Positions 18,257 to 64,000 of a DNA stretch of 64,000 bases are shown here, piece after piece. The translations under genes and the position numbers were made by a program. Source of the stretch: Eledone cirrhosa (taxonomy: Eukaryota). The notes under the pieces were generated by a model. The model saw only the letters and a list, made by a program, of their open reading frames with translations, was not told the DNA's origin and searched no databases. Every line of letters starts with the position of its first letter. Position 1 is the stretch's first letter. The stretch is taken from the NCBI GenBank assembly GCA_964016885.1, contig OZ024740.1:36890001-36954000 (forward strand), read 5' to 3'.

Positions 18257-18542
18257 GGTTGGTGAAGCCACGCTTCTTATCGTCTCCAATCTTTTTCAAC
18301 GTTTTACCTCTTTTTCAACCGTTCTAAACCTTTTATTCAAGTTTTAAATTTGATAAAAGTTTAGAAGAAGTGACCCACCTAATACAGGGGTTCACTAGTA
18401 AATAATACGGCACCCCTTTACGGGGTGTCGTATTCGTATTCATATTTGTGTAAAAATATTTTTTGAAAAATTTCAACATGGATAACACAAAAAAGAGAGA
18501 GAGCGCTGTCAGACAACACAGAGAGAGGGAGACTTTACCAGC

Positions 18543-20430
18543 ATGTCAACAAGACAGCGTTCCAGCGGAGGTAAATATAAACGAAAATATAACAAAGGAA
18601 AAAAAATTGTTACAGATTTAAAATTAACAAATATTTCTAACACAAACAACACCAACAATAACACCAACAACATCACCAACAACAACACCAAAAATAACAG
18701 CGGTAAAGTCGAGAACGACAATAACAAAAATAACAGAGGTAAGGTCGAGAACTACAATAACAATGACAATAACAACAGCCACAACAACAGTAACAGCAGC
18801 AACAGTATCAACGAAAACAACCCCAACAACTGTACGAGCGAAAAGAACAACAATGACACCGATACCTGTAATAGCGACCTCAGCACCACCAGTAGGACCA
18901 GTAGCGGCAGCAATAGTGGTGCTGCTGAAAAAGGGACCACTTCTTTTGGAGGTGTCGCCCGAAATATCGAGACAGTGTTAGTCACAGAGGAGGAGATGGC
19001 AGTCGCAAGGGCCATGGTGACAAGAAGCGCAAATAGAGTTTCCCTGAAAACTCCACCCGATGTTTTCAAGGACCAGCAGCTACGAACGGTGACTTACCGC
19101 ACCGTAAGCAAAATCTCACATCGAGTGGAGAGAGCCACGGAGGCTCAAATCCAAAAGGCTTTGGGGTGCGTCTGGGCACGCAGAACCCACATCATCCGAG
19201 GCAGAAAGTACGCCACAGTAGACGTACTTTTCGCCACCCCCAAGGAAGCAAAGTCTCACTCTTTGGAAACCCTAAAGAATGAGGAGTTAGTCTTGGTGCC
19301 CTCCTACTGCGGGCAGAAAATTGTGAGGGTCAAAGTGACCCAGGTCCCACCCGACGTGCCCATACCTTGGCTGGCCGCGTCTGTCCTTGCTGGAATTGAG
19401 AACAGGGCGACCATGCTGCAAGTAGAAAAAATAGGGAGAGAGAACTGGTCAGGTATAGGCATGCAAATGCTTATACAAACTGACCAGGAATGTATCGAGG
19501 CTATCCCCGATATCATAGACTTTGAGGAAGGACTCCAACTCCCTATAAGTGTAGAAGGAAGACGGCCAAAATGTTATCTCTGTGGGTCGAAAGATCACCT
19601 CAGGGCCTTTTGCCCACAGAAGACACCGAAGAGGGCCCCTCTCCTTCCAATACCTGGTCCGCTGTTACCAAGAGCAGGACAGGCAACAAACGAAGAAGCC
19701 CCGTCCACGGTGAGTAGGAGGGCAACGTCCGTAGCACCCGTACCAAGGCCACGGATAACTAAAGCAGCATCATCAGTAGCGGCAACACCAATAGCTACAT
19801 TTGAAATAGCTACACCAGCAACAACATTGCCGAAGAGGGCTCCACTACCACCACCAACAGCCGTGGAGCACATACCCCTCCCAGACGCCACAGAATCCGA
19901 CATGGAGTTTGAGGCGGGAGTGACGTGGCAAACAGTCTGCCACAAAAAACAAAAAACAAAAAAAAACCTTAGATTCACCCTCCAAAAGCGAAGGCATACA
20001 AAGAGGGGTAAAGGCAGCAAGGAAACTTGCAGCAACACCACCACAAACACCAACAACGCAAACACAACAAGACACACACACCAAACAACAACAAGAAGAA
20101 AACGGCAACAAAATCACCCCTCCCCCCAAAAAGTACACAGCCATAAACATAGCAAAAAAAGAACTCATAAAATATATAAAGCAGCACACAGACATCACGG
20201 AAAAAAATTACTACACCCCACCAACACCAAGAACTCTCCCGTCAAACATAAGCATCATCGAAATCTCATTAGAACAATACAAACCTTTAAAACAAAAATT
20301 CCCCAACGCAGTTGGAGACTTCAGAGGGACGGTTACCAAGAGGATATACACTGACATCCTCTTGGAAACACACATGACCAGCGAAAGGGACGGTTCTACT
20401 GTCCCTTCACCACACGAACAAGGTAAGTGA
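18543..20430 (+). pseudogene. T1 ORF1, Gag-like nucleic-acid-binding protein
   Basis: Asn-rich N-terminus and CCHC knuckle CYLCGSKDHLRAFC; frameshift in an A-run near 19950-19970; true C-terminus reads ..STVPSPHEQGK*. Confidence 0.85.
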
Positions 20431-20462
20431 CCCTTTCTCATTTGCCCCGTTTCTCATCCAAC

Positions 20463-22968
20463 ATGGTTGTACTCAGAATAGGAAGTATAAATGCACGTGG
20501 CCTGGGGTCATCTTGGAAGCAGGGTCACCTGCTCAATGACCTCAGGTCACTAAACATAGATGTGGCGGCCATCAGTGAAACCAGAATCTCCGAGGCACGG
20601 GCCATCGCACCGATCTTCGGCGGCTACGATGTATACGCATCTCCCAGCCGTCCAGGATCGGGGGATGGGTTGCCGTCCTTTTTCGAAGAGGCTTGGATCT
20701 CGCTATACGGGCCATCTTCCTGGACCCAGAAAGTAAGTCCGTGGTGCTAGACGTGACCGGCAGCGAAGGCAATGCTTTCAGGCTAGTAGCCGTCTACGCC
20801 CCAACAGGGGCAGGACGGCCAGATTTCTTCAGACGTCTAGAGACCTTTCTTGGAACGTCCCGCTCTTTAGTGTTAGTGGGCGACTGGAACGGTATCTTGG
20901 ATGCACGCTGGGATCGTGTGGGGCTAGTGGATAGGGGAGGAGGGTGCAAGAGCCTCACCAACCTGCTCAGGCGTTTTGAACTGTCTAACAGGTATCGACT
21001 GGATCACCCGAATGTGCCAATGTGGACATGGACAAACCGCATCGGGTCATCCAGATCGTATCTAGATAGGGTATTCTGCAGGGAACTAGATAAGGCTAGT
21101 ATAAGTTGTCCACAATTTAAAATAGTCGACTACACAGACCACAAATTTGTGATCTGTGAGATCGACATAGACAGACTTCATAGACAAGGGTCTGGTCACT
21201 GGAAGCTGAACGCATCTTTCCCGGTGCGCAAGGCCTACAGAGACCGGATTAGCGTATTAGCACTTTGCTGAACTGTTCGGGAGCGGCGGAGGCCCTGATC
21301 AACTTGGATCAATCCAAAGCATTCGATAGGGTCGACCATCGGTACCTGGCGGCGGTCCTCGAGGCAGCCGGTTTCGGGCCCGTTTTCAGGCGTTGGATCG
21401 CAGCAATGTACAGCGACATCTGCTCAGTTGTGAGGGTGAACGGTCATCTGTCGCAGCCGTTTAGCATCATGCGCTCAGTCCGCCAGGCTTGTTCCCTCTC
21501 GTCCCTCTTGTACGTATTGGCTCTCGAGCCGTTACTGCACAAACTGGCGGCGATGAGGGGCGTCCCACGCGAACTAGGATGCGGGAAATCCGAGTCGGCT
21601 TACGCTGACGACGTCACCGTGGTGGTGTCGAGCACCAGACACGTCCAGATGCTCGGCACCGCTCTCAAGGAATACGAAACGGTGACAGGAGCAAAGATAA
21701 ACCAGGAAAAGTCGGTGGGCTTGCAGCTAGGCACGTGGAGAGGCAAGTCCATGCCGTCCGACAGCGTCGTGGGGCGTTGGACGGACGGACCGGTTAAATT
21801 GCTCGGGGTCTGGTTCGGACCGGACCTCCAGATGGAGAAAAACTGGAACGAGGTGACGAGCAGGGTGGCCTCCCTCACCCAGAAATGGGCTGAGAGGAAG
21901 TTGTCCCTGAAAGGCCGGGCGGAAGTGGCGAATGCGAACATCGCATCCGTCATCTGCTACCGCCTCACCGTCGTCCCTTGCTCCAGCCCAACTCTCACCA
22001 AAATGGAGCGCCTCCTCTTCCGCTTTTTGTGGAAGGGACGCGCTCCCATGGTCAGACGATCCATCTGCTGTCAACACCCGTTGCGTGGAGGACTGGGCAT
22101 GCCATGGCTGATGATGCGCAAACATGCGCTGAGGCTGCGACATCTCTGGTGCTTCCTTGATGGTGAACGGGTGTGGTCGCCGTTCGCCAGGCACATTTTC
22201 CCACAGCCCGTCTCCTTGACGGAGCTACAGTACTGGGTCAGAAAAAGACCGAGGGATAGCGCTTGGAAACTGGAATGTCTCCAGGCGCTCACTGCCCTCT
22301 CCCAGTTGGGCACCAGTATCGGTGGAACATCCACCTCGGCGTTCTATAGAGGACTAGTGGAGGGGAAGAGCGACGACGTTCTCGGAGAGATCCTGGGATC
22401 CGAAGAAGATCAGCTGCTTGCTCTCTTCCGGAGAACTTTCAGCCCGGGGCCTATGGATAACTTCCAAAAATCCCTGGCCTGGCAGTGCTACCGGGGAGCG
22501 CTGGCGGTTCGAGATTAGCTCTACAGGCACGGAAGTGCCGTCAGCCGAGCCTGTCCGAGATGCGCGCATAGCGACGAAACCGTTGTGCACGCACTCGTTC
22601 AGTGCCCGAGCATTGCTGACTTGTGGAGCTATGTCGAACAGTTGCTGTCACGTGTGGGACTGATCCGGTTGTCGACTGAGTCCATTGTGCAGATGGTCTC
22701 GCCGTCTTCCTTTGAGGAGGAAGGGCAGGCGGTTTTCATCTGCCTGGTGGCCATGGCGAAAGAGATTGTGTGGTGGACAATGTTAAAAGGATTAAAGACA
22801 AACACTTTCCTCTTCGGCGAATCCCTGATTAACTTTTTCAAGTTTCACTTGAAGAGGAAAATCAGGGTGGAGAGGCAAGTGCTGCTTTCTAGCAAGTTTG
22901 TTGAAAGGTGGGTGAATGTAGCGAGAATGGTCCGAGTGAACGGGACCACTCTGAATATATGTCTGTAG
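20463..22968 (+). pseudogene. T1 ORF2, AP endonuclease plus reverse transcriptase (disrupted)
   Basis: IGSINARGL, ISET, VYAP, GDWN, SYLDR, TDH; LDQSKAFDRVDH, VRQACSLS, YADD; C-terminal CPRC..H..C. Confidence 0.92.
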
Positions 22969-23295
22969 TTTGAGAGATGGAAAAATTGAGAGAGGGCGCT
23001 TGCCCTGGTAGACAGGGTGGCCGTGGTCTTTTGTGTGGTTTTCACCACGAGTAACCCGCGGAGGTTTCCCCCCTATTGGGGAATTTTTCATTGTTTCAAC
23101 TTCCATTTTATTGTTTACATATATATATATGTTTTATGTCTTTTTTCTTTTCTTATATAAATAATAAAAATATTTACACGCACAAAACCCACATCATACC
23201 GTCCTGTTCCGTCTGTGACGTTTTTCTTGATGTCAGCCCTTGTGGCCAATAAAGAAATCATTATTATTATTATTATTATTATTATTGTTGTTATT

Positions 23296-26200
23296 CCTTG
23301 AATCTCAGTCATTGATGTTGGTTAACTGGAAAGTCCGTTGGATTGAATATCAAGCCACTACCTGCAGCCTCAGATATTCAGGACGTATCGGAGGGTTCTT
23401 GCTGTTCCAAGCAAGCATGCCTTTTGAAGCGTTCCAAAAAGCGTGAAGGGGCCGATTTTCTTTAACCCTCCCTGGAAACTTTTGGAGATAGTCCCCAGTG
23501 CGCCTATGACAATCGGGATCACTTTGACTTCATGGCAGTTCCAAATCCTTTTCACCTCCCACTTTAGGTCCTGGTATCGGTTAATTTTCACCCTCTCCTT
23601 CTCTTGCACTCTCGTGTCGAACGGGCAGGCCACATCCACAATCAGACACGATCTTTTTTCTTTGTCCACAACTACCAGGTCAGGTCAATTGTGTTCCAGT
23701 TTTTTGTCCGTCTGTATCCTAAAATCCCACAGCACCTTCACCTGATTGTTCTCCATCACCGCCGCTGGCCTATGCTCATACCATTTCTCAGAATGTGGTA
23801 AATTGTTTACTTTGCACAGGTGCCAGTGGATCACCCTGCCCATCACATCGTGTCTCCAGCCCTTATAGTGGGTCTGGGCTAGGTGTTTACACTCGGACAC
23901 AATGTGAGCCACAGTCTCCTCTCTCTCTCCACAGATCCTGCACAGTGGGCTAGCCTCCTCCTTGTAAATATGGTGCTTCAACCACTTCGTTTTGAGGGCC
24001 TGCTCCTGCGCAGCCATTAGCATTCCCTCTGTAGCCTTTTTGAGGTCTCCTCTTCTCAACCAGTTCCATGTCTGTGGATCTCTAAATTCAGTTTTCTCAA
24101 AGAAGGTACTATGAAGGGATTTTCCCTTAAGGCTGCTCTTCCTCCTTGATGTTATTTCCTCCTTGGACATCCCCTGGCCTACTGTCCCCTCCTTCAGTAC
24201 AGTTCTGAGCATTGGCTCCTTACTATAGGTCACGTATTTGTATAGGTTGTTTTTCTCCATCTGAACACAGTCCTCTATGCTGATAAGACCTCTTCCACCC
24301 TCAGATCTCCTTAGGTAGAGCCTATCGACATCACTCCTCTTGTGGAACATGTTGTAGATAGTCAATAGCTTCCTAGTCTTCCTATCCATTTCTTTTTGTT
24401 CAGCAACATTCCATCTCAGAATTCCCGCACTGTACCTAATAATAGACACAGCTCGGGAATTTACTGCGCTTATGGCATTTCTGCTGTTCAGATGTGACTT
24501 CAATACGCTCCTTACTCTCCGAATGTATTCAGTTCTTAACAATTCCTTTATTTTTTTGTTCTTTATGCCATCAGCCTCCAGAACGCCCAAATACTTGTAT
24601 CCTTCCTCACAGTCAATTTCCTTTATCATTTCACCTGTTGGTATCTGGATCCCGTTACTTCTGCTCAACCTACCCCTCCTCATCACAATGACTCCACATT
24701 TACCAATACCAAACTGCATACATATATCACTGCTGAAAATACGGACAGTGTCAACAAGCACATCCAACTCCTTCTCACTTTTCCCGAAGAGCTTAAGATC
24801 GTCCATGAAGAGGAGGTGATTGATGGTAAGCTCTCCCCTTCCCAACTTGTATCCTGCTCTCACTTTTCGCAGCATAATGGTCAAGGGCATCAGGGCAAGG
24901 ACAAACAACAGAGGGGACAGGCTATCTCCCTGGAAGATACCTCTCTTGATCTTCACGCTTCCCAAGGATACTCCAGTTGATGTCAACTCTGTCTCCCAGG
25001 ACCCCATACTCCTGCCCAGCAACTGTCTGATGTTGTCTGCCACCCTGAAGATCTCCAGGCTTTTGGTGATCCAAGAATGAGGCACCATGTCAAATGCCTT
25101 TCTGTAGTCTATCCATCCCATGGCAAGATCAGTGTGTCTCCTCCTGCAATTCCCCATTACCATCTTATCAATAAGTAACTGGTCCTTTGTACCACGTGAC
25201 TTCTTTCGGCATCCTTTCTGTTCGTCCGGTAACAAGTTGTTTGTGTGGAGGTGATGGTAGATTTCCTCAGACACAATGCTCGTCAACAGTTTCCACATTA
25301 CGGACAGACATGTGATAGGTCTATAGTTGGTAACATCATTACCCTTGATTCGGTCTTTCATTATCAGAACTGTGGTACCTTTTGTCAACCACTCTGGCAC
25401 CTCACCCGACACCAAGCAGTCATTGAACATGGCCGTCAGCTTCGGGTGGAGGGATGTTAAATGTTTAATCCAATACCCCTGCACACCATCTGGGCCTGGT
25501 GATTTCCAGTTGGTTAGTTTTTTGGCCTGCCCCTTAAGAGTTTAAACTGTGATACTCAAATCAGTTTGTTGTTGTGCCTGCTCACCGATCTCCCTCTGTA
25601 CTGTCTCAATCCACCCTGCCTGGACATTATGTCTAACATCCTGCTCCCATATTCCTCTCCAGAATGTTTTAGTTTGCTCCGCCCCAGGGATCAAGTCGTT
25701 GCCTCTTTCTTTCCCCTCAAGCTGTCCAAACAGCATCTTCTGGTTGTTGTCGAACATGCGGTTCTGTTTATACTGACTGACTCTGTTCTCGTATCGCCTG
25801 ATTTTTGCACTCTTTGCTACAATGCGTTGCTTCAGTTCCTCTATGATAATATTTAGCTTTTTCCTCCTAGTTTTGTATTTTATTTCCAGTCTATTTTTAG
25901 TGCCTATGTTTTTTAGTGTCCCATTCAGTAGTGACTCAAGCTTTCCTATGTCATTTCTCATTTCCCCGATTTGCCCACTCAGTCGCTTCTTCCACCACGG
26001 CTCTGCTCTTTCTTGTCTGTTGTTTCCTCTCGCTTTTATACCAAGTAGTTTCCTCACCGTATTTGCTGTTGCTTTGAGGATAGTGTTGCACTGGTGAAGG
26101 CTCCTCGCCTCAAGGTATGGGATGACTTTGTTTACCTTAGCTGTTGTTTCTTTTAACTTTTTCCTGTCTACAAATCTTAGGTTCATAGGTCTCCCACTAT

Positions 26201-26815
26201 CATTGTTCAATTCATCTACCACTAAATTTAGGATGTCAACCGAATCTTGTCCTAGCCCGTCAGCATTCATCTCCTCAGTGGCCGTATCTCTGTTCCAGGT
26301 ATTATTTATCTCAGTATTCAGATCATTGTCTGCTTCGGGTGGTTCCTCCGTTCTCAGGACCTCTTCACCTTCATTTCCCACTGGCTCGCTTGTCTGGCAT
26401 ACTACACCCGCCATCTCCAAGCCATTCTCTCTGCTCAGTTCCTCCAGTTCCAGCTCGCTTATCCACCCATTCGTTCTTATTACCCGAGCCTGCCCGGCCA
26501 ATTTTTGTTCATCTAATTTAAATAAACCAATCTCGTTCCAGATGTTATGCACCCGTCTCCTGTAGCCCCTCTCCTTGGGGTTACTTTTCAGGTAACATTG
26601 CATAACAGTTCTATTCAATTCTTTCGTCCTGTTGGTTCTGGCCCCTTTCCTTCTTCTCCTTCCTCCAAACATCAGCAGTATTTGGTTGACAGTCAGGTTC
26701 CTGCTGCTGAGCCAGGGGGCACCTGTTGGGTGAGAGTCTGTCACATGACGTTCTAGTCTCCATTTCACCGTTATTCGAACTGTTTATGTTCGATATTTAA
26801 ACACTCTTATCGAGG
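23296..26815 (-). mobile_element. R4/Dong-type RT-REL retrotransposon, family A, full-length copy
   Basis: Flanked on both sides by (TAA)n on its sense strand; single long ORF. Confidence 0.92.
23370..26768 (-). pseudogene. R4/Dong ORF (RT, Zn knuckle, REL endonuclease) with two nonsense substitutions (~25542, ~23685)
   Basis: [73 protein letters not shown]. Confidence 0.92.
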
Positions 26816-26884
<69 letters not shown>

Positions 26885-29800
26885 GAATGCTATGGTTGAC
26901 GGAGGCTCGGCTCTGTAAGGTATTGTAAATTTTGACCGCTATAACAATTGTAAATTGTTTAAAACTTTAACCAACTTGTAGACAAAAACATCCTCCTCCT
27001 CGTGAGAGGGGTCTTTCTGCCCGTTATTTGGCCCTTCGGGGTTAAATAACCAGTTATTGGGGTTTTGTGCCCAATATTTATTTTAAACAAAAAAAAACAA
27101 CATGGCTACGAAAAAAAATTTTCATAGGTCACTCCCACTCATTCCGTCGTCTTCTTCCTCAATCGTCACTACAGCAGAGAGAAGATTGTCTCTCTTCCTC
27201 CCTTCTCTAAATGTGTCTCTCTCCCTCCCTTCTCTTTCGCAAGCGACGCCAGAAAAGAAAAATCACGTGGAAAACGTGCATGATTTCTCCACGACGACGA
27301 CGACAACGACGAAAAAGGTGTGCGGCAAATAGGAAAACCCATTTCATTCGTCTGACGTCAGGAATAATAGCAGTAGCAGCCGTAATAACAGCAGCAGCAG
27401 CAACAGGGACAAGGAAAACGACAGTAGCAGCCACAACAGCATCAGCAGGAGCATAAATAACAACAGCAACAACAACAGCAGCAGCAGCAGCAACAACAAC
27501 AACAACCACAGCAACAGCGGCGGCGGCAGTAGTCGTAGTACCTGCAGCAACAACAGAAGTAACAGCAGCTCTGACGACAACAACAACAACAACAACAACA
27601 GCAGCAAAGAAAAACCAATCTCGTTTGCAGGTATCGCAAAGAACCTGGAAACCATCCTCATAACAAATGAGGAATTAGAGGAAGCGAAGAAGATGGTGAC
27701 GAAAACCGGACACCGAGCAATCTGCAAGGCAGCCGAAAAATATTTCGAAACCCAATAGCACTGTACGGTCACGTACCGTACAGTAAGCACAAAATCCCGT
27801 AGGGTTGAAAGAGCCACAGAGGCTCAAATACAAAAAGCCTTAAGGTCTGTGTGGCAGCGGAAAACGCACATCACCCGAGGCAAGAAATATGCCACCGTAG
27901 ACGTGCTTTTTGCCACACCCCAGGAGGCAAAGACTCAATCCTTAGTGACCCTAAGGAGCGAGGAAATGGTGTTGGTGCCCTCCTACTGCGGGCAAAAAAT
28001 TGTGAGGGTCAAACTGACCCACGTCCCCTCCGGGATGGCCCCTTCTTGGCTGGCCGCGTCTGCCCTCGTCGAAATCGAGGACAAAACAACTGTACTGCAA
28101 GTACAGAAAAAAGTAAGAGAAGATTGGGTCGGCACCTCCATTGAGATGTTAATCCAAACCAACCAGGAGTGCATCGAAGCTATCCCGGATGTGATAGACT
28201 TCGATAACGGCACTCAACTGCCCATAAGTGTTGAGGGCAAACGACCGAAATGCTTTCGCTGTGGATCGAAGACTCACCTCAGGGTCTTCTGCAACGAGAA
28301 GACCCTGAGAAAGGAGAAAAATCCCCTCCTTCCGAAACCGGCTCCACGGCTATCAGCAACAGGACAAGCGGCAACCAGGAACGATATGTCCGTGGCACCC
28401 ATACCCACGCCACGGAAATCAAAAACAGCAGCAGCAGTGGAAGTATTAACAACAACAACAGTAATACCAAATGCAGCTGCAACAGAGACTCCAGTGCAAA
28501 CATCACCAACAACAACAAGTGAAAGAGTGGAGCTGGTACCCCTCCCCGACCTCACAGAATCAGACATGGAGTGTGAGGTGGGAGAGGGATGGCAAAAGGT
28601 CGTAAGAAGGCACAAACGCAGAAGCAGCGAATCGTCGCCTTCGAAAAGGGAGGAAAGAAATTAAAAAAGAGTAAAGGCTACTGCAAAGAGACTCACAGCA
28701 GCAACACCACCAACACCATCACCACCCACACTAGCACCACCATCATCACCGGCGACAACCCAACCGCCAACAACAACAACACCTTCAACACCACCACCAC
28801 AAGCACCAACATCGCAAACACAACAAAACACACACACCCAGCAACAACGACAAGAAAATAGCAGAACCACACCCCACCCCCAGAAAAACAAATGCACGCC
28901 AATAAATACACACAACAAGAAACTAATGACTTACATAATTGAACACACAGACATTTCACAGCACGACTACATAATACCAGCACCAATCAAAACGCCAAAT
29001 AACATAAGACTGCTAAAAATAGCACAGAAACAATACACAAACATTAAAACGAAATTCCCCAACGCAGTCGGTGATTTCAGAGACCTAGGAGGGACTCTCA
29101 ACCGAAGAGTATATTCGGACATACTCATAGAAGAGCCGACGACCAGCCGAAGGAACGATTCAACGGTCCCTTCACCAGACGATCAAGTGAAAAGGGATGG
29201 AAAAACCATCCTTCCTCTACGAAAAGTACGGTAAGTGGTCTTTCCCATCTTTTCCACTCTATTTTAAACATGACCTCACTCAGAATAGGCAGTATAAATG
29301 GGCATGGCTTGGGCTCGTCATGGAAGCAGGGTCACCTGCTCAACGACCTCAGGTCACTAAACATAGATGTAGTGGCCATCAGCGAGACCAGAATCTCCGA
29401 AGCACAGGCCTTCGCACCGATCTTCGGCGGCTACGATGTGTACGCATCGCCCAGCTGTCCAGGATCGGGTGGAGGAATTGCTGTGCTTTTTCGGAGATGT
29501 TTGGATCTCGCCATACGGGCCATCTTCATGGACCCAGAGGGTAAGTTGGTGGTGCTGGACGTGACCAGCGGAGACGGGCAAGCTTTCAGGCTAGTGGACG
29601 TCTATGCCCCGACAGGAGCAGGGCGGCCTGTTTTCTTCCGGCGTCTGGAGACCTTTCTTGGAACGTCCCGCTCTTTAGTGTTAGTGGGCGACTGGAACGG
29701 GATCTTAGATGCACGCTGGGACTGTGTGGGATTAGCGGATAGGGGTGGAGGGTGCAAGAGCCTCACCAACCTGCTCATGCGCTTTGAACTGTCTGACAGG

Positions 29801-32800: not shown

Positions 32801-32941
32801 GAATCTTTCATTGTTATTTCTTTGTTACATCCTCTGTTTTTGTTTTTTACACGCAGAAATGCCCATTTGTACCGTCCTGTATTGTCCTGCACTGTCCTTA
32901 ATGTCTACTTTATGTAAACCCTTGTGGTTAATAAAGAAATC
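26885..32941 (+). mobile_element. Tx1-type LINE copy T2 (full length, multiply frameshifted)
   Basis: ORF1 ~27102-29234 with CFRCGSKTHLRVFC; ORF2 29270-32690 with APE motifs, GKSPGLDGLP, NFRPITLLN, RQGCPLS, YADD; 5' flank (TTA)n, 3' flank (TTC)n. Confidence 0.93.
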
Positions 32942-32942
32942 A

Positions 32943-33021: not shown

Positions 33022-33084
33022 TGCCGTCCTTAATGTTATATATCTCCTTTGGAGGTAATAACGAGACAATTATTCTTATTATTG

Positions 33085-51503: not shown

Positions 51504-53917
51504 TGCATTTATCTTGCTTTATGTTCATACGAGTTATCACCAAGTCACAACCAGTGACCTCAAGAGACAACAAGGTCCGCCATGTTCAAGAAAGAACATA
51601 CATATTCACACATGCATCCTTAGTGTTTAGACTTGTGATGTACTTATATTGACAGGATCTTCCTTAATATATGGGCAGTTCCCATTAGTACTATCTTTTG
51701 TATTTCTCCTATACGCGGGTTTCCTGGGATTTGCGATAAGTAGTCGTTAGACCCCTTAGGTATCACTCCCAGAGCGCCTACAACCACTGGTATTGTTTTA
51801 GTTCTCAATTTCCACATTTTTCCAATTTCTATCTCCAGGTCCTTATACTTGCTCAATTTTTCAAATGTTTTTATAGATACATTCTTGTCTATTGGAACAG
51901 ACATATCAATTAGCAGGCATACCCTCTTTTGAAAGTCCTTCAATATTATATCAGGTCTATTTGCATCTATTTTTCGGTCTGTTTGGATGCTAAAGTTCCA
52001 CAAGATTGAGATGTGATCTTTTTCAAGTATGGGAGGTGGTTGATGCTCCCACCAATTCTTTTGATGGGGCAGGTCAAAATGCTTACACATTATCCAATGT
52101 ATGTATTGTGCAGCTCTGTCATGCCTGTTTAGGTATTCGGTTGGAGCTATAGGACTGCACATTGAAATTATATGGTCAATGGTCTCTGGTTGTTTTTTGC
52201 ATACACGGCATAATGGGCTGCACCCATTTTTTATTATGTTGGCTTGGTAATTTTTTGTTGGCAGACACTGATCTTGTGCCGATATAATCAGTCCTTCAGT
52301 CTCCGATTTCAGTCCAGAGGATGCCAACCACTGATGGGTTAAAGTTTTGTCAACATCAGGATTGTTAGCTCGCTCTGGGTATTTTCCATACAGAGGCTTT
52401 TCTTGCCATTTCTTAGCCAGTTTCTGTAGCAGTTCTTTCTTTGCAGTTACTTTTACCTGCTTTGCTTTTTCTGTGTTTTCCATTTCAGCAGTAAATGGGA
52501 CTTCTGAAATTTGTAGTCCATTACCGTATCTTTGTGCATCTTTTGTAATGGAATATGATCTTTTGGTGCTTTCGTGTTTCAAAACGATTTTGATCATCCA
52601 ATCATGTGATTCCCTTAGATATGTGGATAATCCAATTGTTGCAGTTTTCAACGCAATGTCTAACTGGATTAACCCACGTCCTCCTTCTTTCCTAGGGAGA
52701 TATATTCTATCTATGTCTGCCTTAGGGTGATGCATTCTGTGCATGGTTAAGAATTTTCGGATTTTTGTATCGAGCCTACGGATCTCTGTGCTTGACCAGT
52801 TGATGACATTGTAACTGTAGGTTACTACTGGTATGGCAAGCGTGTTTATGGCATCGATCTTATTCCTTGCATTCAATTCCGTTCTTAAGATTGCTCTGAC
52901 TCTGCGGTAACATTCCTTCCTTATCCTTTCCCTCATTGTCGAGTGCTTGATTCCGTCTCCTTCACACACACCTAGATATTTGTAAGTTTTTTCTTGATCA
53001 AGCTCTCTTATCACGTTCCCCCGATCAAGATTAATGTCTGAACTCTTCAGCAGCTTTCCTCTGGTGAACGTTGCTTTGGCGCATTTATCCAGTCCAAACT
53101 CCATTTTAATGTCATCACTGAACTGCTTCACAGTGGATAATAGCCCTTGCAATTGTTCATCATTTTTTGCAAATAGTTTCAGGTCATCCATGTAGAACAG
53201 GTGATTAATGGTTTTGTCATAGACTCTATATCCATGTTTTGTTTCATTGAGCATTTTACTTAATGGTATAAGTGCGATGCAGAATAAAAGCGGTGATAAA
53301 GAGTCACCCTGAAAAATTCCACAATTAATATTAACTTCTCCAGCTTCCAGTGATTTATTTTTCACTATTCAAAAGGAGTGTCGTTTTCCATGTCATCATA
53401 CTGAATGACAAAAACCTCCTGACAACCGGAGATATTTTGAAAATCTCTAAACATTTTTCAATCCAACTGTGTGGCAAACTATCGAATGCTTTTTTATAAT
53501 CTATCCAAGCAATCGATAGATTTTTGTGTCTATTATGACAATCTTCCAGTATCATTTTGTTAACCAGAAGCTGATCCTTACAGCCATATGAGCCTCGTTT
53601 ACACCCTTTCTGCTCAATGGGAAATAGGTCATTTGTTATCAGGTGGTCATATGTGTATTCAGTTAGGACTGATGTTAAAAGTTTATACATTGTGGTCAAG
53701 CAGGTTATCGGTCTGTAATTTTTGGGATTGTTTGTCTCATCATTCTTCGGTAGCAGGAATGTAATGCCGTTAACTAGCCATGATGGTATCTTTTCTGGCT
53801 CCTTAACTATTTCATTGTAAAGTTGGGCTAACAGCTCATGAGACTCTGTGAAGGTATTTATCCAAAAGTTTTGTATTTTGTCTTTTCCTGGGGATTTCCA
53901 TTTGCTGGTTTTTCTTC

Positions 53918-53955: not shown

Positions 53956-53956
<1 letters not shown>

Positions 53957-55993
53957 CTTGAATCTCAGTCATTGATGTTGGTTAACTGGAAAGTCCGTTG
54001 GATTGAATATCAAGCCACTACCTGCAGCCTCAGATATTCAGGACGTATCGGAGGGTTCTTGCTGTTCCAAGCAAGCATGCCTTTTGAAGCGTTCCAAAAA
54101 GCGTGAAGGGGCCGATTTTCTTTAACCATCCCTGGAAACTTTTGGAGATAGTCCCCAGTGCGCCTATGACAATCGGGATCACTTTGACTTCATGGCAGTT
54201 CCAAATCCTTTTCACCTCCCACTTTAGGTCCTGGTATCGGTTAATTTTCTCCCTCTCCTTCTCTTGCACTCTCGTGTCGAACGGGCAGGCCACATCCACA
54301 ATCAGACACGATCTTTTTTCTTTGTCCACAACCACCAGGCCAGGTCTATTGTGTTCCAGTTTTTTGTCCGTCTGTATCCTAAAATCCCACAGCACCTTCA
54401 CCTGATTGTTCTCCATCACCGCCTCTGGCCTATGCTCATACCATTTCTCAGAATGTGGTAAATTGTTTACTTTGCACAGGTGCCAGTGGATCACCCTGCC
54501 CATCACATCGTGTCTCCAGCCCTTATAGTGGGTCTGGGCTAGGTGTTTACACTCGGACACAATGTGAGCCACAGTCTCCTCTCTCTCTCCACAGATCCTG
54601 CACAGTGGGCTAGCCTCCTCCTTGTAAATATGGTGCTTCAACCACTTCGTTTTGAGGGCCTGCTCCTGCGCAGCCATTAGCATTCCTTCTGTAGCCTTTT
54701 TGGGGTCTCCTCTTCTCAACCAGTTCCATGTCTGTGGATCTCTAAATTCAGTTTTCTCAAAGAAGGTACTATGGAGGGATTTTCCCTTAAGGCTGCTCTT
54801 CCTCCTTGATGTTATTTCCTCCTTGGACATCCCCTGGCCTACTGTCCCCTCCTTCAGTACAGTTCTGAGCATTGGCTCCTTACTATAGGTCACGTATTTG
54901 TATAGGTTGTTTTTCTCCATCTGAACACAGTCCTCTATGCTGATAAGACCTCTTCCACCCTCAGATCTCCTTAGGTAGAGTCTATCGACATCACTCCTCT
55001 TGTGGAACATGTTGTAGATAGTCAATAGCTTCCTAGTCTTCCTATCCATTTCTTTTTGTTCAGCAACATTCCATCTCAGAATTCCCGCACTGTACCTAAT
55101 AATAGACACAGCTCGGGAATTTACTGCGCTTATGGCATTTCTGCTGTTCAGATGTGACTTCAATACGCTCCTTACTCTTCGAATGTATTCAGTTCTTAAC
55201 AATTCCTTCATTTTTTTGTTCTTTATGCCATCAGCCTCCAGAACGCCCAAATACTTGTATCCTTCCTCAGAGTCAATTTCCTTTATCATTTCACCTGTTG
55301 GTATCTGGATCCCGTTACTTCTGCTCAACCTACCCCTCCTCATCACAATGACTCCACATTTACCAATACCAAACTGCATACATATATCACTGCTAAAAAT
55401 ACGGACAGTGTCAACAAGCACATCCAACTCCTTCTCACTTTTCCCGAAGAGCTTAAGATCGTCCATGAAGAGGAGGTGATTGATGGTAAGCTCTCCCCCT
55501 CCCAACTTGTATCCTGCTCTCACTTTTCGCAGCATAATGGTCAAGGGCATCAGGGCAAGGACAAACAACAGAGGGGACAGGCTATCTCCCTGGAAGATAC
55601 CTCTCTTGATCTTCACGCTTCCCAAGGATACTCCAGTTGATGTCAACTCTGTCTCCCAGGACCCCATACTCCTGCCCAGCAACTGTCTGATGTTGTCTGC
55701 CACCCTGAAGATCTCCAGGCTTTTGGTGATCCAAGAATGAGGCACCATGTCAAATGCCTTTCTGTAGTCTATCCATCCCATGGCAAGATCAGTGTGTCTC
55801 CTCCTGCAATTCCCCATTACCATCATATCAATAAGTAACTGGTCCTTTGTACCACGTGACTTCTTTCGGCATCCTTTCTGTTCGTCCGGTAACAAGTTGT
55901 TTGTGTGGAGGTGATGGTAGATTTCCTCAGACACAATGCTCGTCAACAGTTTCCACATTACGGACAGACATGTGATTGGTCTATAGTTGGTAA

Positions 55994-55996
<3 letters not shown>
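53956..55996 (-). mobile_element. R4/Dong family A, 5'-truncated copy with open 642-aa ORF
   Basis: Near-identical to 23296-25335; (TAA)n on both sides. Confidence 0.93.
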
Positions 55997-56063: not shown

Positions 56064-56461
56064 GCGATGCCCTGATTAACTTTTTCAAATTTCATTTGAG
56101 AAGGAAAATCAGGGTAGAGAGGGAAGTGCTCTCTTCTCAGCATGTTGTTGAAAGATGGGTGAGAGAAGCAAGTATGGGCCGAGTGAATGGGCCTACTCTG
56201 AGTATGTGTCTGTAAATTAAAGGTGGAAAACTGGGAGATGGCACTTGCCCTGGTGGTCAGGGTCACTGTAGCTTTTTAATGGGCTTTCTCCACAAATGTC
56301 CCTCGGAAGTCTCCCCCCTATTGGGGAATTTTTCATTGTTATTTTTATTACATCCTCTGTTTTTTTTTACACGCAGAAATGCCCATTTGTACCCTCCTGT
56401 ATTGTCCTGTGCTGTCCTTAATGTCTACTTTATGTAAACCCTTGTGGTTAATAAAGAAAGC
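56064..56461 (+). pseudogene. 5'-truncated Tx1 (T2/T3-type 3' end)
   Basis: ORF2 end plus 3'UTR between (TTA)n tracts. Confidence 0.9.
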
Positions 56462-56476: not shown

Positions 56477-59400
56477 GGCCACCTACGTAGTAAATCGTAT
56501 CATCGTGAGCTCCGCAAAGGTTTGTTATTTCCAGTTGTTCAAAATTGTCATTCATGGAAAATGTTATTGTTAACTGTATATAAGTGCACATACATTGTTA
56601 TTTGAAAAGGACATCCAAAAAGATTGGGGCCTTGAGCCCAAAATTTAAACTTTTATAATTATCAAACAAAACATTTTCTTTGAAACATCATGGCTGACTC
56701 AGAGTCTCCTTTCTCACAAACTAACACCTCACACCGACACCACCATTGTAAATATTACTACGTTTGCCAACACTAAAATTATAAGCAGTAGCAATATTTT
56801 AAATTTGTCTCAGACATTCATTTCCCGCCATTACCAATGACTGCAGGTGTTAAAGCCGCCACCACCACCACCACCGCGGCGACAACCACCCCCACCACGA
56901 CAACAGAAACAAAATAAAAAAATAAATTAACTCGTGATATCGAAATGAATTCAACCAAAATGAATTCTTCCACACCGAACAATACTGACGCCACCACCAC
57001 CACAACTGAAACTAAAATTAATAATAACAAAAATAACGATAACAACAACAGCAACAATGAAATTAAGAAAACCACCCTGAGTTTTGCCAGAGTAGCAAAA
57101 CAGTGCGAAGCATTTCAGGTAACTCAGGAGGAATTAGAAGAAGCCAAAAAAATGGTAAAGAAAGATGGGAACAGGGTCAGCCTCACCCCCACCCCACCCA
57201 CCTAATAACATGGAGCATCGGCGCCTATGCACTGTGTCTTATCGAACAATTAATATAAAATCGCGCCGAGTGGAACGGGCATCCAAGTCCCAAATCCAAA
57301 AAGCTTTGGGACATGTGTGGGCAAAAAAAACCACATCAGACGGGGGCAGAGGTATGGAAGCGTGGACGTGTTCTTTGAAACACCACAGGAGGCTAGAGAA
57401 CACTCCATGGCCCCATTAAGAAGTGACGACTTCACACTCGTCCCAAGCTATTGTGGCCAGAGAATCGTAAAGATCAGGGTCATCCACGTTCCACCGGCCA
57501 TCGAAATTCCCTGGCTAATAGCTGCCGTCTTCGCCGGCATCGAAGCCAACACCAAGATAATCGAAATAGCGAAAGAAAAGCAGGAGAACTGGTCCGGATC
57601 TGGGATGGAGCTCCTGATCCAAGCGGAGCAAAAAAGCATTGAGGAGATCCCAGAGGTAATAGACCTCACTGACGGCAGCCACCTCACCGTAATTATCGAG
57701 GGCAGAAAGCCTAGGTGTGTCGTTTGTGGTGAAGGAACCCACCTAAGGGCTTTCTGCCCTCAGCCTAAAAGGTTGAGGCCTCCTCTCCTACCCACCCCAG
57801 TGACTCAACCATCAACACCACCAGCAGCAGAGATGGCAGCAACAACTGTAGCAGCAACAACAGAAGCAACTGTAACAGCAACGACACGAGCAACAGTAGC
57901 AAAATCAACACCACCACCACCCAACGCGCCAGAACTAGCACCAGCGCCTACACCATCCACCGCGCCACAACCAAAACTAACGCCTGTGGAGGATGTTCCA
58001 CTCCCCGGCCTATCACAACTGGAGACAGATTGTGACGACGAGGAGTGGGAAACGGTATCAGGAAAAAATAAAAAATAAAAATTTAAAAAAAATTCACTTC
58101 CTTCCCCTCCAAAAACAAAATACAGAGGGAAACAAATAAACTATCAAACAAAAAAGTTATGACAGATTGCCACCATCCACACCAGCATCACCAACCCCAT
58201 CACCACAAACACCAACACCACCATCACCTACACCACAAAAGTCACCAAAAAGCGAAACAGAAACAAACCCACAACAAACGCAAACAAAACAAAACAACCA
58301 AAACGATACACACTACACAGCATTAAATTTGAACAACAACCAATTATTACACTACATCCAACACATCACCAGCATCACAGAAAAAGACTACACAACAACC
58401 CAAAAGTTCACACAACCTCCACACATACAAATTACTCGCATCACACACAAAACGTACATGTAAAACAAAAATTCCCCAAAGACATCGGAGACTTCTGACA
58501 AGCACTCTCCAGGAGGATTTATAAGGACATCCTTCCTGAGGAGGCCACAAGCAGTGAAAAGGGTGGAGAAACCGTCCTTCCTCTACGAAAAGTATGGTAA
58601 GTGGTCTTTCCCATCTTTTCCACTCCATTTCAACATGACCTCACTCAGAATAGGCAGCATAAATGCGCGTGGCTTGGGGTCGTCATGGAAGCAGGGCCAC
58701 CTGCTCAACGACCTCAGGTCACTAAACATAGATGTAGTGGCCATCAGCGAGACCAGAATCTCCGAAGCCCGGGCCATCGCACCGATCTTCGGCGGCTACG
58801 ATGTGTACGCATCTCCCAGACGTCCGGGATCGGGGTGAGCAATTGCTGTGCTTTTTCGGAGAGGTTTGGATCTTGCCATACGGGCCATCTTCCTGGACTC
58901 AGAAGGTAAGTTGGTGGTGCTGGACGTGACCAGCGGAGACGGGAATGCTTTCAGGCTAGTGGCCGTCTATGTCCCGACAGGAGCAGGGCGGCCTGATTTC
59001 TTCCGGCGTCTGGAGACCTTTCTTGGAACATCCCGCTCTTTAGTATTGGTGGGCGACTGAAACGGGATCTTAGATGCACGCTGGGACTGTGTGGGATTAG
59101 CGGATAGGGGAGGAGGGTGCAAGAGTCTCACCAACCTGCTCAGGCGTTTTGAGCTGTCTGACAGGTACCGATTGGATTTCCCGAATGTGCCAATGTGGAC
59201 TTGGACAAATCTCAAAGGGTCATCCAGATCATATCTAGACAGAGTATTTTGTAGGGAAATAGATTGGTCTAGCATAGGCTGTCCACAATTCAATATAGTC
59301 AGCTACACGGACCACACATTTGTGATCTGTGTGCTTGACTTAGATAGGCTTCATAGACGAGGACCCGGCTACTGGAAGCTAAACGCTTCCTTACCAGCGC

Positions 59401-61396
59401 ACAAGGCCTACAAAGACCGGATTAGCGAACTAGTTAAGCGGGCGTTGACGGGGTCCATCGTCAACAACAAGTGGTGATTTGCTCTGAAAAGAGCAATTAG
59501 AATAGAGTCCATTAGGTTTAGTAAGGCTTTAGCAATAAAGAAAAATAGAGCAGAGGGAGAATTAGTTAGAAAATTAGACGAGGCGCTTAGCAAAGGCATC
59601 GCGACCGACGTACTTGCGGCGAAATTGGCCCTTGACCAATTCTTCAATGCAAAGCACGAAGGCTGCGTTGTCAGACCTAGGGTGCGTGCTCTCAGACACG
59701 AGGGGACGAAGCTGTTCAATGGGCCCGAGTGGCGGAGGCTCGTCGTGGCAACAAAGCCACGATCTGGTCTTTGGTGGACCACGACAGGCGCATGCTACTC
59801 GATCCCGGGAAAATGTGTGAAGCTTTTCAGCGACACTTCGCTCAACTGTTCGGGGGCAGCGGCGGGACGGATCGAGGGATAGACTTTAGTCTACCTCGAC
59901 GGACTGCCGCGGCGCTTGTCGTTGGTGGTCTGGTGGGAGAGGCGCAGACATGCGCCATTCCCGACAGATCCATCCACGACAACCTCCACCTCATGTGATA
60001 CATCGTAGAGAGGGTAGCTAGGGAACCTGGCACGGGTGGGTCCTTGATCAATTTAGATCAGTCGAAAGCTTTCGATAGGGTCGACCATCGTTACCTAGCG
60101 GCGGTCCTGAGGGCGGCTGGTTTTGGGCCCGTCTTCAGAGGCTGGATCGCTGCCATGCACAGCGACATCTGCTTTGTGGTGAGAGTGAACGGTCTCCTTT
60201 CGGAACCGTTCAACATCATGCGCTCAGTCCGCCAAGGATGTCCCCTCTCGTCCTTCTTGTACGTATTGACTCTCGAGCCATTACTGTACAAACTGGAGAC
60301 GATGAGGGGCGTCCCGCGCGAACTAGGATGCGGAAGATCCGTGTCAGCATATGCGGACGATGTCACCGTAGTGGTGTCGAACGCCAAACACATCGACGCG
60401 ATCGACACTACACTAAGAGAATACGAAGCGGTGACAGGAGCAATGATCAACCAGGAAAAGTCAGTGGGCCTGCAGCTCGGCACCTGGAGAGGCAGATCCA
60501 TGCCGTCCAACAGCGTCGTCGGGCGCTGGACGGACGGACCGGTTAAATTGCTAGGGGTCTGGTTCGGTCCGGACCTCCAGACGGACAAAAGCTGGGACGA
60601 GGTGACGAGCAGAGTGGCTTCTCTCACGCAGAAATGGGCAACTTCCAGAAATCCCTGGCCTGGCAGTGCTACCGAGGATCTTTGCCAGTTCGGGATAAAC
60701 TCTACAGGCATGGAGGTGCCGCCAGCCGGGCATGTCCGAGATGCGCGCAGGGCGACGAAACCGTCCTGCACGCACTCGTCCAGTGTCCGACCATTGCTGA
60801 CTTGTGGGTTTATGTCGAACACCTGCTGTCACGTGTAGGACGGATACGGCTATCAGCTGAGTCCATCGTGAGGATTGCCCCGCCCTCTTCCTTTAGCCGG
60901 GAAGGGCAGGCAGTTTTTATCTGTCTGGTGGCCATGGCGAAAGAGATAGTATGGTGGACACGTTTGAAAGGGCTGAAGACGAGCACTTACCTCTTCGGTG
61001 ATGCCCTGATTAACTTTTTCAAATTTCATTTGAAAAGGAAAATCAGGGTAGAGAGGGAAGTGCTCTCTTCCCAGCATTTTGTTGAAAGATGGGTGAGAGA
61101 ATCAAGTATGGCCCGTGTGCATAGGCCTACTCTGAGTATCTGTCTGTAAATTAAAGGTGGAAAACTGGGAGAGGGCACTTGCCCTGGTGGTCAGGGTCTC
61201 TGTGGCCTTTTAATGGGCTTTCTCCACAAATGTCCCTCGGAAGTCTCCCCCCTATTGGGGAATTGTTCATTGTTATTTTTTATTACATCCTCTGTTTTTT
61301 TTTACACGTAGAAATGCCCATTTGTACCGCCCTGTATTGTCATGCCCTGTCCTTAATGTCTACTTTATGTAAACCCTTGTGGTTAATAAAGAAAGC
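56477..61396 (+). mobile_element. Tx1-type LINE copy T3 (distinct ORF1, ORF2 with two internal deletions)
   Basis: ORF1 with CVVCGEGTHLRAFC; ORF2 58636-61149 with APE and YADD; (TTA)n on both sides. Confidence 0.92.
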
Positions 61397-61429
61397 ATTA
61401 TTATTATTATTATTATTGTTATTGTTATT

Positions 61430-64000
61430 CCTTGAATCTCAGTCATTGATGTTGGTTAACTGGAAAGTCCGTTGGATTGAATATCAAGCCACTACCTGCA
61501 GCCTCAGATATTCAGGACGTATCGGAGGGTTCTTGCTGTTCCCAGCAAGCATGCCTTTTGAAGCGTTCCAAAAAGCGTGAAGGGGCCGATTTTCTTTAAC
61601 CATCCCTGGAAACCTTTGGAGATAGTCCCCAGTGCGCCTATGACAATCGGGATCACTTTGACTTCATGGCAGTTCCAGATCCTTTTCACCTCCCACTTTA
61701 GGTCCTGGTATCGGTTAATTTTCTCCCTCTCCTTCTCTTGCACTCTCGTGTCGAACGGGCAGGCCACATCCACAATCAGGCACGATCTTTTTTCTTTGTC
61801 CACAACCACCAGGTCAGGTCTATTGTGTTCCAGTTTTTTGTCCGTCTGTATCCTAAAATCCCACAGCACCTTCACCTGACTGTTCTCCATCACCGCCTCT
61901 GGCCTATGCTCATACCATTTCTCAGAATGTGGTAGATTGTTTACTTTGCACAGGTGCCAGTGGATCACCCTGCCCATCACATCGTGTCTCCAGCCCTTAT
62001 AGTGGGTCTGGGCTAGGTGTTTACACTCGGACACAATGTGAGCCACAGTCTCCTCTCTCTCTCCACAGATCCTGCACAGTGGGCTAGCCTCCTCCTTGTA
62101 GATATGGTGCTTCAACCACTTCGTTTTGAGGGCCTGCTCCTGCGCAGCCATTAGCATTCCTTCTGTAGCCTTTTTGAGGTCTCCTCTTCTCAACCAGTTC
62201 CATGTCTGTGGATCTCTAAATTCAGTTTTCTCAAAGAAGGTACTATGAAGGGATTTTCCCTTAAGGCTGCTCTTCCTCCTTGATGTTATTTCCTCCTTGG
62301 ACATCCCCTGGCCTACTGTCCCCTCCTTCAGTACAGTTCTGAGCATTGGCTCCTTACTATAGGTCACGTATTTGTATAGGTTGTTTTTCTCCATCTGAAC
62401 ACAGTCCTCTATGCTGATAAGACCTCTTCCACCCTCAGATCTCCTTAGGTAGAGTCTATCGACATCACTCCTCTTGTGGAACATGTTGTAGATAGTCAAT
62501 AGCTTCCTAGTCTTCCTATCCATTTCTTTTTGTTCAGCAACATTCCATCTCAGAATTCCCGCACTGTACCTAATAATAGACACAGCTCGGGAATTTACTG
62601 CGCTTATGGCATTTCTGCTGTTCAGATGTGACTTCAATACGCTCCTTACTCTTCGAATGTATTCAGTTCTTAACAATTCCTTCATTTTTTTGTTCTTTAT
62701 GCCATCAGCCTCCAGAACGCCCAAATACTTGTATCCTTCCTCAGAGTCAATTTCCTTTATCATCTCACCTGTTGGTATCTGGATCCCGTTACTTCTGCTC
62801 AACCTACCCCCTCTTCATCACAATGACTCCACATTTACCAATACCAAACTGCATACATATATCACTGCTGAAAATACGGACAGTGTCAACAAGCACATCC
62901 AACTCCTTCTCACTTTTCCCGAAGAGCTTAAGATCATCCATGAAGAGGAGGTGATTGATGGTAAGCTCTCCCCTTCCCAACTTGTATCCTGCTCTCACTT
63001 TTCGCAGCATAATGGTCAAGGGCATCAGGGCAAGGACAAACAACAGAGGGGACAGGCTATCTCCCTGGAAGATACCTCTCTTGATCTTCACGCTTCCCAA
63101 GGATACTCCAGTTGATGTCAACTCTGTCTCCCAGGACCCCATACTCCTGCCCAGCAACTGTCTGATGTTATCTGCCACCCTGAAGACCTCCAGGCTTTTG
63201 GTGATCCAGGAATGAGGCACCATGTCAAATGCCTTTCTGTAGTCTATCCATCCCATGGCAAGATCAGTGTGTCTCCTCCTGCAATTCCCCATTACCATCT
63301 TATCAATAAGCAACTGGTCCTTTGTAGCACGTGACTTCTTTCGACATCCTTTCTGTTCGTCCGGTAACAAGTTGTTTGTGTGGAGGTGATGGTAGATTTC
63401 CTCAGACACAATGCTCGTCAACAGTTTCCACATTACGGGCAGACATGTGATAGGTCTATAGTTGGTAACATCATTACCCTTGATTCGGTCTTTCATTATC
63501 AGAACTGTGGTACCTTTTGTCAACCACTCTGGCACCTCACCCGACACCAAGCAGTCATTGAACATGGCCGTCAGCTTCGGGTGGAGGGATGTTAAATGTT
63601 TAATCCAATACCCCTGCACACCATCTGGGCCTGGTGATTTCCAGTTGGTTAGTTTTTTGGCTTGCCCCTTAAGAGTTTCAACTGTGATACTCAAATCAGT
63701 CTGTTGTTGTGCCTTCTCACCGATCTCCCTCTGTACTGTCTCAATCCACCCTGCCTGGGCATTGTGTCTAACATCCTGCTCCCATATTCCTCTCCAGAAT
63801 GTTTTAGCTTGTTCCGCCCCAGGGATCAAGTCGTTGCCTCTTTCTTTCCCCTCAAGCTGTCCAAACAGCATCTTCTGGTTGTTGTCGAACATGCGGTTCT
63901 GTTTATACTGACTGACTCTGTTCTCGTATCGCCTGATTTTGGCACTCTTTGCTACAATGCGTTGCTTCAATTCCTCTATGATAATATTTAGCTTTTTACT
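61430..64000 (-). mobile_element. R4/Dong family A copy running off the window end (1-bp frameshift ~62805)
   Basis: ORFs 62804..63970 and 61504..62802 are near-identical to the 23.3-25.9 kb copy. Confidence 0.93.

Follow-up and report, generated by a model that had tools for sequence, protein, structure and literature searches.

Evidence that Tx1-like and Dong/R4-like LINEs share (TTA)n microsatellites from opposite strands in Eledone cirrhosa

Here, we present an analysis of the long interspersed nuclear elements (LINEs) that reside in (TTA)n microsatellites of the 3.0-Gb genome of Eledone cirrhosa (assembly GCA_964016885.1), centered on a stretch of 64,000 bp that we refer to as the window (contig OZ024740.1, here C1, positions 36890001-36954000). 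We conclude with considerable confidence that Tx1-like elements (Tx) with an apurinic/apyrimidinic endonuclease (APE) and Dong/R4-like elements with a restriction enzyme-like endonuclease (REL) occupy this repeat genome-wide on opposite strands, likely by nicking different strands, and form mixed stacks of fixed polarity. Read in the sense direction, a Tx copy appears as ...(ATT)n-element-(ATT)n... and a Dong-like copy as ...(TAA)n-element-(TAA)n.... An earlier note on the window had proposed one shared repeat, used from opposite strands by an APE-type and a REL-type element, and the flank counts across the genome agree with this idea.

Insertion polarity across the genome

The element copies in the window are named TxA, TxB, and TxC (+ strand) and DgX, DgY, and DgZ (- strand). 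As the earlier note had stated, all Tx copies adjoining a TTA tract in the window are on the + strand and all Dong-like copies on the - strand. Because polarity within the window alone merely follows the strand of the tract, the strand rule rests on genome-wide counts and on a position-blind sample. Using exact patterns over the whole genome for Tx 3' ends, TxB 5' ends, and DgX ends, we counted 9,309 Tx 3' ends that continue into ATTATTATT and 38 that continue into AATAATAAT, and ATTATTATT precedes 2,291 of the 2,369 full-length TxB 5' ends. The patterns also detected 4,368 DgX 3' ends and 1,141 DgX 5' ends; on the reverse strand, to which the count of their upstream flanks was confined (each site being listed once and overlapping forward counts left out), TAATAA lies at most 6 nt upstream of 480 of 599 DgX 5' ends. 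Five of the 38 AATAATAAT-followed Tx ends have one common junction (C18 5.26-9.84 Mb) and are likely one event copied by duplication.

The same polarity is evident at 141 anchored loci (150 loci from five DNA searches, minus the five of the window itself and the duplicates L021, L043, L089, and L146), which are best matches and, thus, young and long copies. For the Dong anchors, at least three TAA units are present at 28/28 3' ends and 26/28 5' ends (54/56 altogether), and at least three TTA units at none; for the Tx anchors, at least three TTA units are present at 23/28, 29/29, and 25/28 ends, and at least three TAA units at one. In the position-blind sample, consisting of 100 stretches of 10 kb (1 Mb) with 73 tracts of at least four units and 34 tracts of at least six, the expected polarity was found at 33 of the 34 LINE ends at tracts (p=4e-9). 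The genome-wide orientation test that the earlier note had proposed thus confirms the strand rule.

Two arrays in the window

The seven LINE junctions reported previously are all present. Three are tail-to-tail, with Tx and Dong 3' ends facing each other across TTA (23259/23296, 51476/51504, and 61396/61430), two are head-to-head (26815/26885 and 55996/56064), and two are same-strand tandems (53918/53956, Dong/Dong; 56461/56477, Tx/Tx). The region 18257-64000 had been treated as one locus; instead, it comprises two arrays, one at 18152-33022 and one from 47347 to ~75,260, past the window end, with 14 kb of other repeats in between. The Dong "heads" at 26815 and 55996 stand as junctions, but these ends are 5'-truncated, and full-length copies have ~1 kb more 5' sequence. 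Absent from the earlier note were the tails of a short interspersed nuclear element (SINE), which open both arrays, and the Dong-like copy at 47540-48246, which has TTA on either side. Array 1 consists of the SINE tail, TxA, DgX, TxB, and a final (TTC)27. Array 2 continues from the SINE at 47347 with DgY, an old R4-like copy, a Tx fragment, DgZ, DgX, a second Tx fragment, TxC, and DgX; beyond the window it extends for ~11 kb more, with a Tx, a DgZ, a very short Tx 3' end, and another DgX-type copy, and its polarity is unchanged there. Tx pieces on the - strand lie outside tracts at 1-374 and 34347-34831. The features of the arrays, in which RT stands for reverse transcriptase and ORF for open reading frame, are as follows.

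18152..18228, + strand: tRNA-type SINE, 3' part; tail continuous with the first TTA tract of array 1
18225..18254, + strand: (TTA)10 tract; 5' flank of TxA
18257..23259, + strand: TxA, Tx1-like LINE; ORF1 with zinc knuckle, broken APE-RT-zf ORF2 (~950 bp internal deletion), 3' hairpin and AATAAA
23260..23295, + strand: TTA spacer; tail-to-tail junction
23296..26815, - strand: DgX, Dong/R4-like REL LINE; lacks ~1 kb of 5' sequence, in-frame stops in the ORF
26816..26884, + strand: (TTA)22 spacer; head-to-head junction
26885..32942, + strand: TxB, full-length Tx1-like LINE of 6.06 kb; frameshifted
32943..33022, + strand: (TTC)27 tract; 3' flank of TxB and an exception to TTA
47347..47536, + strand: full-length SINE; start of array 2
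47540..48246, - strand: DgY, 5'-truncated Dong-like copy; 76% to DgX, short TTA on both sides
48260..51100, - strand: old, degraded R4-like element; 29-58% amino acid identity to DgZ, piece by piece
51125..51476, + strand: Tx 3' fragment; no tract 5' of it, (TTA)8 after it
51504..53917, - strand: DgZ, second Dong-like family, 5'-truncated; 39.5% amino acid identity to DgX; RT, CCHC, and intact PD..D..K motif
53956..55995, - strand: DgX copy, 5'-truncated; tandem to DgZ across (TTA)12, REL PD motif is PG
56064..56461, + strand: Tx 3' fragment; preceded by (TTA)18
56477..61396, + strand: TxC, Tx1-like LINE; own 5' untranslated region (UTR) and ORF1, TxB-type ORF2 and 3' end, internal deletions
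61430..64000, - strand: DgX copy, full-length; extends past the window to ~65,990

The earlier note had interpreted the junctions as recurrent insertions rather than one duplication, and sequence comparisons bear this out. Over 1.2 kb, the three DgX copies of the window are 0.8-1.2% apart, a distance no smaller than that to copies on other contigs. A DgX tree with 23 rows, for which 20 of 29 loci had sufficient length, does not unite them; one copy is placed with five outside copies at weak support. The five Tx 3' ends of the window are 70-94% alike, and truncation points vary between copies. One local duplication as the origin of the arrays is contradicted by the DgX divergence and the Tx 3' end identity. 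More broadly, it is very improbable that the arrays derive mainly from local tandem or segmental duplication or from assembly error: while duplicates or identical tandems exist at a few loci (L020/L021, L042/L043, and L088/L089) and a single BLAST block covers both 23259/23296 and 61396/61430, the Tx halves of these two junctions are only 71.6% alike, and the DgX differences and varying truncation points argue in the same direction. In alignments of four DNA sequencing runs to 22900-23700, the repeat was skipped and no piece extended across the junction; two runs labeled with other organisms had coverage of both element ends but did not demonstrate the junction itself. We claim no order of insertion: an order based on a duplicated Dong-tail variant (spacer 56462-56476) found no second case in 10 junction loci.

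Identity of the elements

All three Tx ORF1s in the window contain a CX2CX4HX4C zinc knuckle, and ORF2 has the domains Exo_endo_phos (APE), RVT_1, and zf-RVT. Among solved proteins, the Tx endonuclease comes closest to human L1 ORF2p, including variants of the latter (a weak match, E ~1e-5). The copies are inserted target-specifically and have no poly(A) tail, and AATAAA is present at Tx 3' ends among the matches listed. The Dong-like proteins contain RVT_1 and zf-RVT, and their nearest solved proteins are R2 (E 7e-14). DgZ and the DgX copy at 61430 have a CX2CX8HX4C finger and the motifs RHD, NRPD, D, and K..Y. These elements have a single ORF and no separate ORF1, and the 413-aa N-terminal part has no APE match. 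The homolog searches returned no named Tx1, R4, or Dong reference among their matches, and the clade names Tx1 and R4/Dong are therefore putative assignments based on architecture and target. With regard to an HDV-like ribozyme at the 5' end, as expected for the Dong/R4 clade, Rfam gave no ribozyme match in L018, which has a complete DgX 5' end, although no dedicated pseudoknot search was made; the only Rfam matches in L018 and L106 were two at chance level, neither of them to a ribozyme or a tRNA.

Several observations concern the 5' parts of the elements. In full-length DgZ copies, the 5' ~330-380 nt (L216:3793-4160 and L270:5402-5724) are 76% alike to the DgX 5' end despite the 39.5% protein identity, which may reflect either strong conservation of a promoter or ribozyme or an exchange of 5' UTRs among Dong-like families. 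The TxC ORF2 and 3' end are 93-96% alike to the TxB type, and similar chimeras are present at L264, L266, and L267; 5' halves seem to have been swapped among Tx families. A splice-donor-like motif, GCTCC..GTAAG, lies 30-50 nt into several Tx 5' UTRs and the DgX 5' UTR (5' ends of TxB, TxC, L069, L072, L134, L226, and DgX), and Tx 5' UTRs have in common a short inverted repeat near +140 to +180. A 5' UTR shared between Tx and Dong is unproven: pairwise scores exceed those of 200 shuffles and an 11-nt motif is common to both, but a profile of six Tx UTRs finds Tx copies and not the Dong UTR (E<=10). A repeat that is frequent to the left of TTA tracts, which we initially read as a Dong 5' end, has no link to Dong and was removed from the library. 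A further element family starts directly after TTA/TAG tracts downstream of Tx ends, in Tx orientation (L062:1925- and L143:1875-), and has no match to the Tx/Dong library.

A SINE as third party

The SINE presumably carries A- and B-box-like motifs (Rfam: no tRNA match). At tracts, 18 of 19 SINE ends are on the Tx strand. In the blind sample, a target duplication of at least 9 nt flanks 32 of 57 full-length SINEs, 27 of them starting with TTAT, compared with a mean of 3.7 in a mismatched-pair control; the duplications are 8-20 nt long with an ATTAT start. Most copies are outside microsatellites, with at least two TTA units upstream in only 18/70. SINE and Tx 3' ends have the same hairpin, with a CT(T/G)GT loop on a 3-4 bp stem at the same distance from the tail and stem pairs that differ between families. 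In 16 rows, which are related, were picked by a loop-requiring pattern, and contain only four pairs, 90.6% of the cells pair and the covariation is 0.573 versus 0.238 (0/500 shuffles; slid controls <=0.277); two-sided change is found in 3/4 pairs, which is not above shuffles (232/500). Because the SINE shares the Tx 3' hairpin and the ATTAT-starting duplication, Tx is likely its carrier, and this combination would fit the stringent type of LINE/SINE pair known from plant L1 elements (PMC3472496). In the sampled megabase, the SINE covers ~2.4%, Tx-like matches ~4.8%, and Dong-like matches ~1.7%. The parts of PMC4824008 and PMC4758252 available to us name no partner for octopus SINEs. Tandem SINEs with their own target duplication in between were observed at L164, L175, L190, L206, L218, and L222, as in SINEU-3.

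Neighbors across the tract

The window had been described as alternating arrays of a two-element system, a picture that does not extend to the anchored loci. The neighbor across the tract is Tx for 17, Dong for 27, a SINE for 3, and none found for 9 of the 56 Dong anchors; for the 85 Tx anchors, it is Dong for 26, Tx for 24, a SINE for 14, and none for 21. Thus, 43 of 94 LINE neighbors are heterotypic and 51 homotypic (binomial p=0.47), neighbor type is independent of anchor type (Fisher p=0.41), and at least three Dong-like families, several Tx families, and a SINE take part. All 43 labeled heterotypic pairs are on opposite strands; two opposite-strand Dong pairs have the appearance of 5' inversions.

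A LINE lies across the tract at 94/141 anchored ends versus 25/68 sides of the blind-sample tracts of at least six units (p=5e-5), and the median tract length is 9 units if LINE-flanked and 4 otherwise. Junction frequency was measured on C1 1-44.65 Mb, where, outside the window, 10/38 DgX ends face a Tx end tail-to-tail within 200 nt and none is wrongly arranged; 3-9% would be expected from the genome-average tract density in the 1-Mb sample. In the same region, 65/140 consecutive ends are at most 15 kb apart versus 6.5 expected, and 61 of the 65 are in one polarity. In the blind sample, only 10/34 LINE ends have a LINE across the tract, near the 23% background and well under 94/141. Of the adjacency enrichment that the earlier note had suggested looking for, we therefore retain that young copies cluster beyond the tract-density expectation; clustering is not general but pertains to young or long copies or to certain regions. 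If equal tracts were simply split by insertion, left and right occupancy would be independent, and we reason that the excess of neighbors points to favored long tracts or regions, not to attraction between the clades.

According to the earlier note, convergent read-through could produce antisense RNA of both clades and, through small RNAs, mutual silencing; double-stranded RNA formed in this way would couple the two clades. Alternatively, each could prefer the other's junction. We consider coupling unlikely. Convergent pairs are indeed common, with about a quarter of DgX 3' ends facing a Tx 3' end across a short tract, and the silkworm Dong has a self-cleaving 5' ribozyme, tested on a transcript starting in TAA repeats (PMC3774820), which fits transcription from outside. 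However, the absence of a heterotypic preference (43/94) speaks against it, no sequence feature requires it, and the AATAAA at Tx 3' ends might limit read-through. The LINE clades need not interact and can be viewed as independent tenants of one renewable target.

Proposed mechanism of target sharing

In standard target-primed reverse transcription, the strand nicked first is the complement of the 3' flank of the element. By this logic, the first nick would fall in the TAA-reading strand for Tx, at a T-A step, and in the TTA-reading strand for Dong. A cut at a T-A step is compatible with the Tx junctions, which read …C|ATT at the 3' and ATT|G at the 5' end. Judging from the SINE target duplications, the Tx core site may be short (ATTAT), with a staggered second cut ~8-20 nt further on. 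Each insertion would split a tract in two, so that a used tract keeps offering sites and the target is renewed, and SINE tails likely seed new tracts.

Truncated copies help to distinguish target from tail (their labels are automatic, and a few rows are mis-bounded). Because a TAA tract lies directly upstream of 35/46 5'-truncated Dong copies and a TTA tract upstream of none, the repeat is the target and not part of the element. Among the 38 5'-truncated Tx copies, 17 have a TTA tract directly upstream, 4 have a duplication but not three TTA units directly upstream, 17 have neither, and none has TAA. Thus, truncated Tx copies are less strictly tied to the repeat than truncated Dong copies, whereas full-length TxB adheres to it very closely. 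The earlier proposal that each insertion leaves target on both sides accordingly holds for full-length copies but only partially for truncated Tx.

An alternative is that the repeats flanking Tx are made by the element, the 3' one as tail and the 5' one from read-through RNA, and that Tx needs only a short ATTAT, which is dense in tracts, with long copies surviving better in arrays. We regard this alternative as rather unlikely. The SINE, which is likely moved by the Tx enzyme, fits it with its few upstream TTA units and its duplications that extend into unique DNA, as do the truncated Tx copies without a 5' tract and L067, in which the Tx duplication extends into non-repeat DNA. On the other hand, the 17 truncated Tx copies with upstream TTA have different 5' ends, and Tx directly against Dong tails and heads requires a pre-existing tract. 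Moreover, short-motif and long-repeat targeting differ in degree, and the strand rule remains intact under both.

Several points weigh against our interpretation that the two clades share the repeat as a target with fixed polarity. The exceptions to the strand rule comprise the 38 Tx ends in TAA, L037 (an unlabeled locus with a Tx-type end on the Dong strand), L079, and the TTC/GTC flanks (window 32943 and L063). TTA tracts are directly upstream of only 17/38 truncated Tx copies, and the near-perfect 5' repeat of full-length Tx could partly stem from read-through RNA copying or survival in arrays. The cut register is blurred by microhomology, the nick positions being deduced from junctions. 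To these we add, from the sections above, the selection of the hairpin rows and the shuffle result for two-sided change, the use of a genome-average tract density, and the near-background value of 10/34 in the blind sample.

Extending the idea of a shared, renewable target, we speculate about a self-renewing niche of three parties that shapes several percent of the genome, although it seems improbable to us in this full form. In such a niche, the Tx1-like enzyme would scatter the abundant SINE at ATTAT, SINE and LINE tails would grow into (TTA)n, Tx and Dong would colonize its opposite strands, and about a thousand or more convergent pairs would be dispersed sources of antisense RNA that restrain both clades.

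Comparison to known systems

The general design, with two elements occupying one repeat in opposite orientations, has a known precedent in TRAS and SART, two site-specific non-LTR (long terminal repeat) families that form arrays in the (TTAGG)n of Bombyx mori (PMC7265360, PMC10088271); the TRAS1 endonuclease nicks between T and A (PMC7265360). The similarity to the system described here includes the two families in one repeat, the opposite directions, and the arrays. In contrast, TRAS and SART are both APE elements of the R1 clade and telomeric, whereas here an APE-type element, putatively of the L1 group, and a REL-type element share a dispersed trinucleotide microsatellite on many contigs. 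Dong, DongAg, and DongBg reside in TAA microsatellites, with a member known from a snail, a mollusc (PMC3812793), and Dong belongs to the R4 lineage (PMC3774820); the Dong-like elements analyzed here resemble them in their single ORF with RT and REL motifs and in their (TAA)n flanks, read in sense, on either side, and we see no essential difference. For Octopus vulgaris, the recently active elements listed include both Dong-R4 and L1-Tx1 (PMC13282606); the main text of that paper does not mention insertion targets.

Tx1 families at microsatellites include Kibi at (TC)n, Koshi at (TTC)n, and crocodilian families at (TTCC)n/(TTTC)n (PMC4494074). The Tx elements described here are likewise Tx1-type elements aimed at microsatellites, but differ from Kibi and Koshi in that their flanks are ATT in the great majority and rarely TTC (in the window at 32943, distally at L063). 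SINEU shares its target with Tx1-Mar and forms tandems across a duplication (PMC4494074); both that SINE and ours share a LINE target, and ours is tRNA-type and shares the 3' hairpin too. Stringent L1-group LINE/SINE pairs are described from maize and green algae (PMC3472496). As in these pairs, LINE and SINE here have a common 3' hairpin, in which the loop is conserved and the stem varies; unlike in them, the likely carrier is an animal Tx1-like element without a poly(A) tail. Finally, double insertion forms tandems, and site preference is the main source of tandem elements (PMC5932611); unlike those tandems, the stacks described here hold several unrelated families.

Within the literature searched (Repbase, the 2004 survey of Kojima and Fujiwara, and most subscription papers lie outside this scope), no report emerged of a Tx1 family residing in ATT/TAA repeats or of an APE and a REL element paired on a single microsatellite, nor was a partner named for this SINE. 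As far as these searches reach, an (ATT)n-targeting Tx1-like lineage and APE/REL sharing at dispersed microsatellites are new. The target repertoire of Tx1-like elements would thereby gain (ATT)n/ATTAT, and APE and REL endonucleases on the two strands of one repeat would make a natural pair for studying the convergence of target specificity. Moreover, a likely carrier can be named for an abundant SINE, and the proposed target sharing is a candidate mechanism for local pile-ups of transposable elements in genomes of this kind. It also calls for caution, as AAT microsatellite markers in such genomes often adjoin mobile elements.

Other repeats in the window

A Tx copy outside tracts (34347-35024) has an inverted 5' part and resembles the product of L1 twin priming. 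An old R4-like remnant (~35% amino acid identity to DgX), interrupted by SINEs, adjoins a 37-bp minisatellite (9.8 copies, 99%); together, they occupy 44564-46609 and 46654-47017. A Penelope-like element at 7561-9869 (+) has an RT and a weak GIY-YIG match, and those at 13083-14378 (-) and 37787-39114 (-) are similar to it by eye; the latter is enclosed by a 1.2-kb inverted repeat (95%; 36731-37910 and 39819-40983). A second inverted repeat, of 520 bp (96%; 42476-42991 and 43299-43821), has (TTA)/(TTG) and (CAA)/(TAA) at its inner ends and is foldback-like or similar to a miniature inverted-repeat transposable element.

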